NCBI GenBank assembly: GCA_024407725.1
Contig: JAKSVZ010000020.1
Location: 1 to 11,837 of the forward strand
Length of the DNA: 11,837 nt
Origin: Opitutales bacterium
Lineage (GTDB): Bacteria; Verrucomicrobiota; Verrucomicrobiia; Opitutales; UBA9783
Reading direction: 5' to 3'
The position numbers were made by a program, and so were the translations under genes. This document shows positions 68 through 1,144 of the stretch, in pieces. Numbering within the stretch: the first letter of the stretch is position 1; every line of letters begins with the position of its first letter. The notes below the pieces were generated by a model. It saw only the letters and a program-made list of their open reading frames with translations, was not told where the DNA came from and searched no databases.

Positions 68-1144
68 TTATTTTGATTGGGGGTGGGCGCTCAAAGTTGC
101 CTCGTTATCATCGTTCGCCAAAAAGCACTCGTAGATAAAATTGCTTAAAGTAATGCCTGCATTCAAGATCAATTCCGCATGATGTCTCTTTAATACCGAT
201 AACTGATTCTTGCGTTCGTTTTCATCATCTACTGAAGGATGTACACTAACATTGCACCTCATGCCCCATATGGGGCGAATAAAATTGCTTATTTTAAGAG
301 GTTCTTCTAAAGCATTCACTAAGCGATGAATCTCATTGTTACGTTCAGAATCCTCATGGAACTTTTGATTCTTAAACTCTTCGAGTAGATTCCCTAAACT
401 TTTCAAATTCGGATTTTGAATAGCATCTATTGCCTTCATTTTACCATCATTATCTTTCAGGGTTAAGTGATGTTTTTTAAACACAGATTTCAACTGTACC
501 TCCAAAGCTTTGCCTATCAAACCAGGAATCTGATCATAAAAAGCACTTTCTAGAGCTTGCTCTGCCTGATCAATAACTGTCCTTACCCTAGTTTTCTCAG
601 GTATATTTACCTTAACGTGATTTACCTTAACCAATCTAGTAAGCCTGAATTCGCAATCAGATATTTCATAATCAAACCTTAATTTATGTTTTTCTAACAA
701 CCTATTAATTTGGTTAATTAAAATCGTACAAATCGCACGATATTCTTCTGGGGTAAAATAATACGTATTTATTGTGACCATCTCATTCCTCAATCCATGC
801 CGGAACTGCTCATAGCGAAAAAAATCACTGAACAGTTCTAGAACATCGTCTTCTTGATCCGCATGCCTAATAACATGCTCGATCAAGTCATTATAAAACG
901 CTACCAAATCCTTCTTTTCGTCCATTACCTCCCAACCCCTTGGTAGAAATACGATATTAGATGAATGGTTCTCATTCTTATGCTTATACTCGGGGTAATA
1001 ATTGCGCCTAAAGTAATCTATGTCTATAGGCCGGAACGATACAACATTACCACTCGGATTTGGTACAAAATTATTCCCAACAAAGAAATTGGCAAATCGA
1101 GGATTTAACAGTTTTTTATATTTATCGCGCCAAGACAATCCCAT
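68..1144 (-). CDS. Accessory hypothetical protein with an Abi_C / AbiJ-type HEPN-like C-terminal domain (candidate abortive-infection family RNase)
   Basis: 358-aa ORF with an ATG at 1144-1142 preceded by purine-rich GGGTAGGGGA. The C-terminus has GMRCNVSVH (R296-x5-H302, nt 259-239), then about 18 aa, then KRHHAELILNAGITLSNFIYECF (nt 187-122). This resembles my remembered consensus for Pfam Abi_C: G-x-hRN..s..H, a short linker, then rHAElavNlAg.l..fl. A second canonical RNxxxH motif is present (R268-N-N-E-I-H273, nt 343-326). The N-terminal 200 aa are not recognisable. The CDS itself is likely; the family call is from memory only. Confidence 0.5.
   Translation of the reverse strand: MGLSWRDKYKKLLNPRFANFFVGNNFVPNPSGNVVSFRPIDIDYFRRNYYPEYKHKNENHSSNIVFLPRGWEVMDEKKDLVAFYNDLIEHVIRHADQEDDVLELFSDFFRYEQFRHGLRNEMVTINTYYFTPEEYRAICTILINQINRLLEKHKLRFDYEISDCEFRLTRLVKVNHVKVNIPEKTRVRTVIDQAEQALESAFYDQIPGLIGKALEVQLKSVFKKHHLTLKDNDGKMKAIDAIQNPNLKSLGNLLEEFKNQKFHEDSERNNEIHRLVNALEEPLKISNFIRPIWGMRCNVSVHPSVDDENERKNQLSVLKRHHAELILNAGITLSNFIYECFLANDDNEATLSAHPQSK

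Follow-up and report, generated by a model that had tools for sequence, protein, structure and literature searches.

The stretch of DNA analysed here (the window) is the entire 11,837-nt contig JAKSVZ010000020.1 of the metagenome-assembled genome (MAG) GCA_024407725.1 of an Opitutales bacterium, and the gene in question is an uninterrupted open reading frame (ORF) on its minus strand, which in the ORF listing encodes 358 amino acids (aa) from the first ATG (M1). The ORF is divergent to the neighbouring uppP/BacA (1911-2795), from which it is separated by a 766-nt gap (Table 1). An initial annotation made from the letters alone had proposed that this ORF encodes an Abi_C/HEPN-like defence protein, and the ORF, the motifs RNNEIH and RCNVSVH, and the tail KRHHAELILNAG... 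beginning at aa 319 were all found where it had placed them. Profile comparisons assign the encoded protein to the AbiJ/Abi_C family, as a highly divergent member with a non-canonical active site.

Compared to the PADLOC AbiJ model PDLC02347, the protein gave a match of 42.6 bits (E=1.5e-11), in which aa 86-339 were aligned with positions 50-275 of the 281 positions in the model. Moreover, both halves of the protein matched the model independently and colinearly when searched alone, aa 85-185 with E=5e-4 (aligned aa 87-159) and aa 186-358 with E=6e-5. No match to the model was obtained with aa 1-84 alone, and the controls, i.e. the reversed sequence and six shuffles of it, had no match at E<=10. 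Pfam Abi_C (PF14355) recognised aa 316-338 (profile positions 60-82 of 83) with 15.7 bits and E=0.016, compared to a gathering cut-off of 24 bits for this family. The tail that had been likened to the Abi_C consensus is thus the very portion that Pfam recognises, and the Abi_C/HEPN call is upheld by the full-length AbiJ profile and by a hidden Markov model (HMM) of the family that we built, but not by Pfam Abi_C itself.

For the family HMM, the catalytic motif RNEYGDAH of SadR (PMC13590631) was back-translated and used as bait on species-representative genomes, resulting in four genuine Abi_C genes originating from Staphylococcus auricularis, Macrococcus hajekii, Selenomonas caprae and an Anaerolineales MAG. 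All four seed proteins pass Pfam Abi_C, with a best E of 6e-25, as well as PADLOC AbiJ, with a best E of 1.4e-61, and their alignment recovered 665 relatives, the best 120 of which all carry PF14355. The same bait found a single match in viral contigs, which was a chance match within a tape-measure-like ORF. Since the profile of the four seed sequences aligned only with the tail of the query in hhalign (30% probability), a deeper profile was built from 103 full-length Abi_C relatives, excluding the query. The resulting HMM scored the query at 23.9 bits (E about 1e-9 as a single target) with HMM positions 76-295 aligned to aa 85-338, compared to 9.1 bits for the best of 2,000 shuffles, and hhalign using the same 103-protein alignment returned a probability of 87% with E=3.7e-6 across 209 columns (aa 85-342). 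As three profile methods share one colinear alignment, we regard homology to AbiJ/Abi_C as established, with aa 85-342 representing an AbiJ/Abi_C-type HEPN homologue.

The protein has conserved the family's catalytic Arg (R296), its Glu in helix 2 (E215-x3-K) and its signature in helix 4. R296 falls on the invariant Arg column of the family in every alignment, and E215-VQL-K219 fits the Ex3[KR] motif that provides an acidic residue in helix 2 of the HEPN superfamily (PMC3710099), with E215 on an invariant family Glu column. In helix 4, the columns occupied by H322, A323, L325, N328 and F336 show 97-100% conservation across the family, and the signature H-A-x-L-x-(V)-N-x-A...F is present except for the A330 position, which is Gly. 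An AlphaFold model based on the family alignment was of moderate quality with a predicted local distance difference test (pLDDT) of 70.7, whereas the single-sequence model was unusable (pLDDT 41). In the former, the middle region is predicted to form helices 80-94, 98-108, 111-121 and 132-151 and a beta-hairpin (155-173), and the C-terminal region helices 186-199, 203-224, 250-258, 266-283, 285-297 and 320-342 with a low-confidence loop at 298-319, thus placing E215 within helix 203-224. R296 closes helix 285-297 and H302 opens the loop before helix 320-342 in this model, although the local pLDDT is below 50; in HEPN domains the Rx4-6H motif sits where helix 3 ends and the next loop begins (PMC3710099).

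The motif following R296 differs from that of the family. While all 103 relatives carry R-N-x5-H-G and, 11 residues further on, H-A, the query reads R296-C-N-V-S-V-H302-P (RC-x4-HP), has 19 residues from H302 to H322-A323, and has a loop after the motif that is approximately 6 aa longer than that of the family. The aligners disagree on the position of the His, as hhalign runs ungapped through the motif and places H302 one residue ahead of the family His, whereas HMMER and MAFFT treat VHPSV as an insertion, so that the family Asp is matched by D307 and the family His by N309. The superfamily-wide Rx4-6H pattern can be read in R296-x5-H302, with Cys as the residue after Arg, and H302 may be the catalytic His in such an Rx5H arrangement. 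In SadR, the R, N and H residues are all needed for RNA cleavage and phage defence, and the N226A mutation led to loss of both RNase activity and defence (PMC13590631). RNase activity of the query cannot be assumed, since its catalytic motif is too altered.

Both RNNEIH and RCNVSVH had been read as HEPN sites in the initial annotation, which holds for RCNVSVH, albeit imperfectly (Asn replaced by Cys, His one residue early and Gly missing), but not for RNNEIH. The latter aligns upstream of the catalytic motif in the helix-3 segment D(R/K)RINtLLSG, at a column where SadR-type members lack Arg, and a double-HEPN reading of the protein was rejected, as this segment does not provide a second active site. 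The number of Rx4-6H matches is within the range of chance, with five in the whole protein (also at aa 110, 148 and 170) compared to 2.75 expected from 20,000 shuffles (P=0.13), and two in the last 100 aa compared to 0.73 expected (P=0.17). Therefore, these motifs are meaningful only through their alignment to the family.

Table 1. Positions of the features discussed in the text, given in window coordinates.
Feature	Position	Strand	Evidence or remark
Full ORF, AbiJ/Abi_C-family protein	68..1144	-	ORF listing; PADLOC AbiJ; own family HMM; hhalign; independent M1 gene call
Alternative 285-aa form from M74	68..925	-	NCBI annotation MCQ2956253.1
N-terminal 84 aa, without detectable similarity	893..1144	-	no PADLOC, Pfam or NCBIfam match
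Middle alpha+beta region, aa 85-185	590..892	-	PADLOC AbiJ positions 51-122; family HMM positions 76-170
C-terminal HEPN (Abi_C-type) domain, aa 186-345	110..589	-	PADLOC AbiJ positions 190-275; Pfam tail; Foldseek; Ex3K
RNNEIH, aa 268-273, Rx4H in HEPN helix 3, not active site	326..343	-	aligns to family D(R/K)RINtLLSG
RCNVSVH, aa 296-302, candidate catalytic Rx5H	239..259	-	R296 on invariant Arg column
HEPN helix 4, Abi_C signature tail KRHHAELILNAGITLSNFIYECF, aa 319-341	122..190	-	conserved columns; Pfam positions 60-82/83; hhalign against four seeds
ORF-free region between abiJ-like gene and uppP, 766 nt	1145..1910	.	two ~120-nt elements, promoter-like sites

The N-terminal 200 aa had been described as unlike anything recognisable and as a possible novel sensor domain. 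The lack of any recognisable similarity holds for aa 1-84, which scored no better against the family HMM than shuffled sequences (rank 157th among them) and may constitute a lineage-specific extension or be partly untranslated. It does not apply to aa 85-185, and a novel 200-aa sensor is ruled out, because this region belongs to the family by its own match to the AbiJ model and shows the pattern LIEHVI...EQF...INQIN compared to LLEYCI...KEQF...IEQING in the family consensus. The region is homologous to the N-terminal and middle part of AbiJ-family proteins and is presumed to act as a sensing or regulatory module.

The gene is annotated in NCBI as a hypothetical protein (MCQ2956253.1) of the Opitutales bacterium MAG, with a start at M74 (position 925, minus strand) and a length of 285 aa, whereas an independent Logan gene call starts at M1 (position 1144) and yields 358 aa. 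M1 is preceded by AGGG at 7-nt spacing and M74 by GGGAGG at 2-nt spacing. The first aligned residue of the query (aa 85-86) corresponds to position 50 of 281 in PADLOC AbiJ and position 76 of 303 in the family HMM, implying that a complete member has approximately 50-75 residues before this point. As 84 residues are available from M1 but only 11 from M74, these profile coordinates favour M1, which we infer to be the start codon rather than M74. The same gene was present in two other records, a Logan contig from SRR17543914 and GCA_024500515.1, both with 100% identical DNA and no extra flank. The MAG contig ends 67 nt past the stop codon and the Logan contig 42 nt past it, with identical DNA where the two overlap. 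That two assemblies break just downstream of the gene could point to a repeat, a region that varies between strains or the boundary of a mobile element.

No homologue was detected at the sequence level among about 15 billion proteins. Both a phmmer search of 1.84 billion cluster representatives and a word-indexed search of 5.8 billion clusters (at E<=0.001 and at E<=10) returned the self-match only, and tblastn searches of plasmid and phage collections, using either the whole protein or its C-terminal 91 aa, gave matches at chance level only. Similarly, neither the protein nor the family profile retrieved any relevant entry in PDB sequence searches, and scans of PHROGs and NCBIfam gave only weak matches (E>0.03). 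The closest relatives recovered belong to an Abi_C subfamily of approximately 300 aa and are 17-22% identical to the query, and the identity to SadR is 11-14%. The divergence of the protein is extreme, and as judged from its sequence it is an orphan, placed in the family by profiles only.

The GC content of the ORF is 36.6% compared to 42.6% for the window, and the hand counts given in the initial annotation (23, 11, 30, 31 and 23 per 60 nt) were exact. It had been suggested from these counts that the gene is on the AT-rich side of the window, compatible with its acquisition. However, the low GC content is mainly due to the second codon position (GC2 = 0.276), and the GC content at the third position (GC3) of 0.368 falls within the range of sctC (0.393), the cesT-like gene (0.357), rplM (0.321) and rpsI (0.379). 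In addition, the synonymous-codon distance between the ORF and the rest of the contig was 0.087, which is among the smallest in the window. As neither GC3 nor codon usage sets the ORF apart from the contig, the composition gives no support for a recent acquisition.

Besides uppP, the contig encodes thiD, thiE, a pyrimidine-nucleoside phosphorylase, hisS, a hexapeptide-repeat protein, a type III secretion secretin, a CesT-like chaperone, rplM and rpsI. The secretin (with Secretin, Secretin_N and T3S N0 domains) and the CesT-family chaperone are located at 8356-10796, adjoining rplM-rpsI. No MNT nucleotidyltransferase ORF was seen upstream of the abiJ-like gene in the window, the downstream side being cut off by the end of the contig. 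Two ORFs between the nucleoside phosphorylase gene and hisS, 5810-6202 (+, 130 aa) and 6199-6441 (-, 80 aa), had no Pfam match. A search with UppP in 241 million metagenome records found 55 loci, all of which were at most 34% identical, indicating that the lineage of the organism is poorly sampled or evolves fast, and none of these 55 loci had an Abi_C gene beside UppP.

The subfamily of approximately 300 aa originates from anaerobes and gut metagenomes and includes the Selenomonas caprae protein P0006 as well as P0029 and P0107. The query shares with these proteins the middle-region motifs and the helix-3 pattern H-x-D...R-x-I..L...LE. In contrast to the query, they have retained RN-x5-HG and LSG, and they adjoin genes of type I restriction-modification (R-M) systems, recombinases or a NikA-like gene, none of which are found beside the query. 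Next to P0107 there are a type I R-M system, serine recombinases and a PF13910 protein, and next to P0029 a NikA-like (mobilisation) gene; such surroundings, in defence islands or mobile elements, are usual though not required for the family and support a role in defence. The Abi_C gene of P0107 is directly downstream of the gene of the PF13910 (EMARD_N/DUF4209) protein of 598 aa, a family that overlaps the C6orf70 HEPN family of the 2013 HEPN survey, and the locus may be a two-HEPN defence island. The Abi_C gene of P0029 overlaps by one base an upstream 229-aa gene with a faint-to-weak HD-domain match, which itself follows a 248-aa gene of unknown function. This arrangement is kept in several assemblies and may represent a multi-gene operon.

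The homology suggests that the function of the protein is likely the same as that of AbiJ and SadR. Each of these two characterised members is one polypeptide, in which an alpha+beta module in the N-terminal or middle part is combined with a HEPN ribonuclease domain at the C-terminus. AbiJ of Lactococcus is a single-gene system, the escape mutants of which are found in phage single-strand annealing proteins (PMC13064643; PMC11381338). SadR, the one member for which sequence-nonspecific RNase activity and defence dependent on this motif have been shown, degrades single-stranded RNA as well as total RNA and blocks phage and plasmids by means of its R/N/H motif (PMC13590631), and escape mutations for both AbiJ and SadR map to phage single-strand annealing proteins. 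We therefore consider it probable that the ORF encodes a highly divergent and lineage-specific AbiJ/Abi_C member that, by analogy, likely acts as an infection-triggered HEPN RNase. According to this model, the protein would be inactive in the uninfected cell, and the presence of a phage or plasmid would be sensed through the non-HEPN part, which would gate the HEPN domain. The HEPN site, composed of R296 at the end of helix 3, H302 at the start of the loop and the helix-2 residue E215, would then perform a metal-independent cleavage of RNA, leading to arrest of the cell and abortion of the infection. Thus, both an active RNase and a role in defence are predicted here by analogy with these systems.

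Like SadR of Staphylococcus aureus, the query is one polypeptide whose C-terminal part is an Abi_C-type HEPN domain with an Arg at the end of helix 3, Ex3K in helix 2 and (R)H-H/A-A-x-L-x-x-N...F in helix 4, and both proteins match PADLOC AbiJ. Besides the low identity, they differ in that SadR carries RNEYGDAH-G where the query carries RCNVSVH-P followed by the longer loop before helix 4, and some SadR-type proteins, unlike the query, show a weak match of the Sdh5-like type at their N-terminus, which stays below the cut-off (E=4e-4 to 1e-4). Moreover, RNase activity and defence have been demonstrated for SadR, whereas they are predicted only for the query. With AbiJ of Lactococcus (Abi-859; PADLOC PDLC02347) the query shares the single-gene organisation and the colinear match through both non-HEPN and HEPN parts. 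However, the score of 42.6 bits is weak compared to ordinary members, which range from 80 bits to E=1e-61, and the query has up to 84 extra N-terminal residues that are unmatched. The lactococcal gene is furthermore plasmid-borne, whereas the query is found on a chromosomal-looking MAG contig of the Planctomycetes-Verrucomicrobia-Chlamydiae (PVC) group together with housekeeping genes. SadR-type proteins are strongly matched by the PADLOC AbiJ HMM (E=5e-23 to 1e-61), and none of 2,815 Abi_C proteins were placed in a known system by PADLOC in the SadR study (PMC13590631), presumably due to the system rules or thresholds of PADLOC and not to the HMM.

Several observations weigh against the gene encoding a working member of this family. 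The query falls below the Pfam gathering cut-off, which all comparison family members pass (73/73), and of the 38 family columns with a conservation of at least 90%, it has kept only 13. The family motif RN-x5-HG is absent, the Asn essential in SadR is replaced by Cys, and according to two of three aligners the column of the catalytic His is occupied by N309 instead of a His, in a part of the model (aa 285-315) where pLDDT is below 50. The composition is host-like, and no defence or mobility genes, such as restriction-modification or recombinase genes, were seen in the 11.8-kb contig. Finally, a Foldseek search of PDB with the model found nothing significant (E>0.5). The best-probability matches were the HEPN proteins TM0613 (1o3u; probability 0.90, target TM-score 0.60), AF0298 (2hsb; 0.75, 0.52), TT1696 (1ufb; 0.72, 0.56) and SSO (2q00; 0.54, 0.63), and Csm6 structures were also among the matches. 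These suggest, from the model, a possible four-helix topology of the query and a similar placement of Arg and His; however, there is no sequence similarity to the query, and many proteins of this group (classical HEPN proteins and Csm6) have an MNT nucleotidyltransferase or a CARF domain as partner, whereas the query has neither. Since the model inherits its fold from the family alignment, Foldseek serves as a consistency check only and not as proof. Because both the Pfam gathering score and the invariant RN-x5-HG failed, we filed the query as a highly divergent new AbiJ/Abi_C member with a non-canonical active site rather than as a standard AbiJ.

The same alterations could mean that the protein is a true AbiJ/Abi_C homologue in which the HEPN site has decayed, leaving a dead relic or a scaffold repurposed for RNA or protein binding in a bacterium that lives with a host and encounters few phages. 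Such decay would explain why a motif found in all 103 relatives is broken by the change of Asn to Cys, a His out of register, the change of Gly to Pro and a loop approximately 6 aa longer, and why the conserved LSG and T208 positions are lost too. Loss of Rx4-6H is on record in several HEPN families (PMC3710099), and both the host-like codon usage and the housekeeping genes found in place of a defence island are compatible with decay. On the other hand, the frame of 358 codons is still open in DNA of 37% GC, and R296, the Glu of Ex3K and a His six residues past the Arg are all present, which corresponds to the Rx4-6H of the superfamily; moreover, spacer lengths in Abi_C range from 2 to 6 residues according to the SadR study (PMC13590631). 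We find decay of the site unlikely, though clearly worth considering, and favour a divergent HEPN RNase.

The region between the abiJ-like gene and uppP, which must hold the promoter of the abiJ-like gene, contains two copies of an element of approximately 120 nt (1446-1566 and 1667-1787) at a spacing of 221 nt, with a 76-nt core that is 75% identical; a third, degenerate copy is located near 1237-1254. In the rest of the window the element does not recur. Inverted repeats (AACTTGAC/GTCAAG) flank each element and at the same time form the -35 boxes of sigma-70-like promoter sites that face each other; in both copies these promoter-like sites read TTGACT-N16/17-TACAAT (minus strand) and TTGACA-N17-GAAAAT (plus strand). 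Terminator-like hairpins are found on the strand of the gene at 1664-1645 and 1239-1218. The folding signal of the region is weak as judged from z-scores, no Rfam match was found in it, and Tandem Repeats Finder detected no array, leading us to reject a classical type III antitoxin array.

We also considered whether an AbiJ-like HEPN toxin could be restrained by small RNAs transcribed from the duplicated elements, in a type III-like or antisense manner. The unusually long ORF-free region with its repeats, face-to-face promoters and terminator-like hairpins resembles the arrangement of the RNA-controlled HEPN toxins AbiV, AbiF and AbiD1 and of type III toxin-antitoxin systems, where repeats and signals for promoters or terminators are likewise found in a non-coding region ahead of the HEPN gene. 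However, AbiV, AbiF and AbiD1 belong to other HEPN families, and an RNA antitoxin is not known for AbiJ. Known type III antitoxins consist of 35-36-nt repeats, and just two good copies 221 nt apart, with no tandem array of short units, are unlike these. Upstream non-coding RNAs do govern other HEPN Abi toxins (PMC13064643), and how SadR is kept non-toxic is not known (PMC13590631). The weak folding and the lack of an Rfam match argue against such control, as do the coding genes directly upstream of the relatives P0029 and P0107, and the elements may simply be promoters for uppP and the abiJ-like gene. Taken together, we judge it very improbable that the protein is an AbiJ-type HEPN with a remodelled Rx5H site (Cys for the Asn that SadR requires, and a larger loop between helices 3 and 4) under the control of small RNAs that originate from these elements. 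If true, it would be the first RNA-controlled AbiJ-family toxin, in a poorly sampled PVC-group lineage bearing type III secretion.

Finally, the lack of any homologue by phmmer or by the word-indexed search at E<=10, the sub-threshold Pfam score, the non-significant Foldseek matches, the chance-level number of Rx4-6H motifs and the presence of sctC and a CesT-like chaperone 7-9 kb away could suggest that the AbiJ/Abi_C similarity is spurious, arising from compositional or helical bias in a Lys/Asn/Glu-rich orphan of unrelated function, e.g. a type III secretion effector, but this is hardly credible given that about 250 residues are aligned colinearly, and in the same way, by three profile methods, that reversed and shuffled controls were negative, and that the conserved residues retained are the functionally meaningful ones.

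As a divergent AbiJ/Abi_C member, the orphan hypothetical protein gains a testable function by way of a family for which RNase and anti-phage activities were recently demonstrated. Its interest rests on the extreme divergence, the natural variation in the active site and the unusual host lineage. The protein shows how far Abi_C proteins can drift and yet stay recognisable by full-length profiles where the Pfam domain model fails, and the replacement of RN-x5-HG by RC-x4-HP is a natural variant that could reveal which features of the motif are needed by the AbiJ/SadR active site. If active, the gene would represent an abortive-infection-type defence gene of a host-associated PVC bacterium bearing type III secretion, being otherwise an ordinary defence-type gene.

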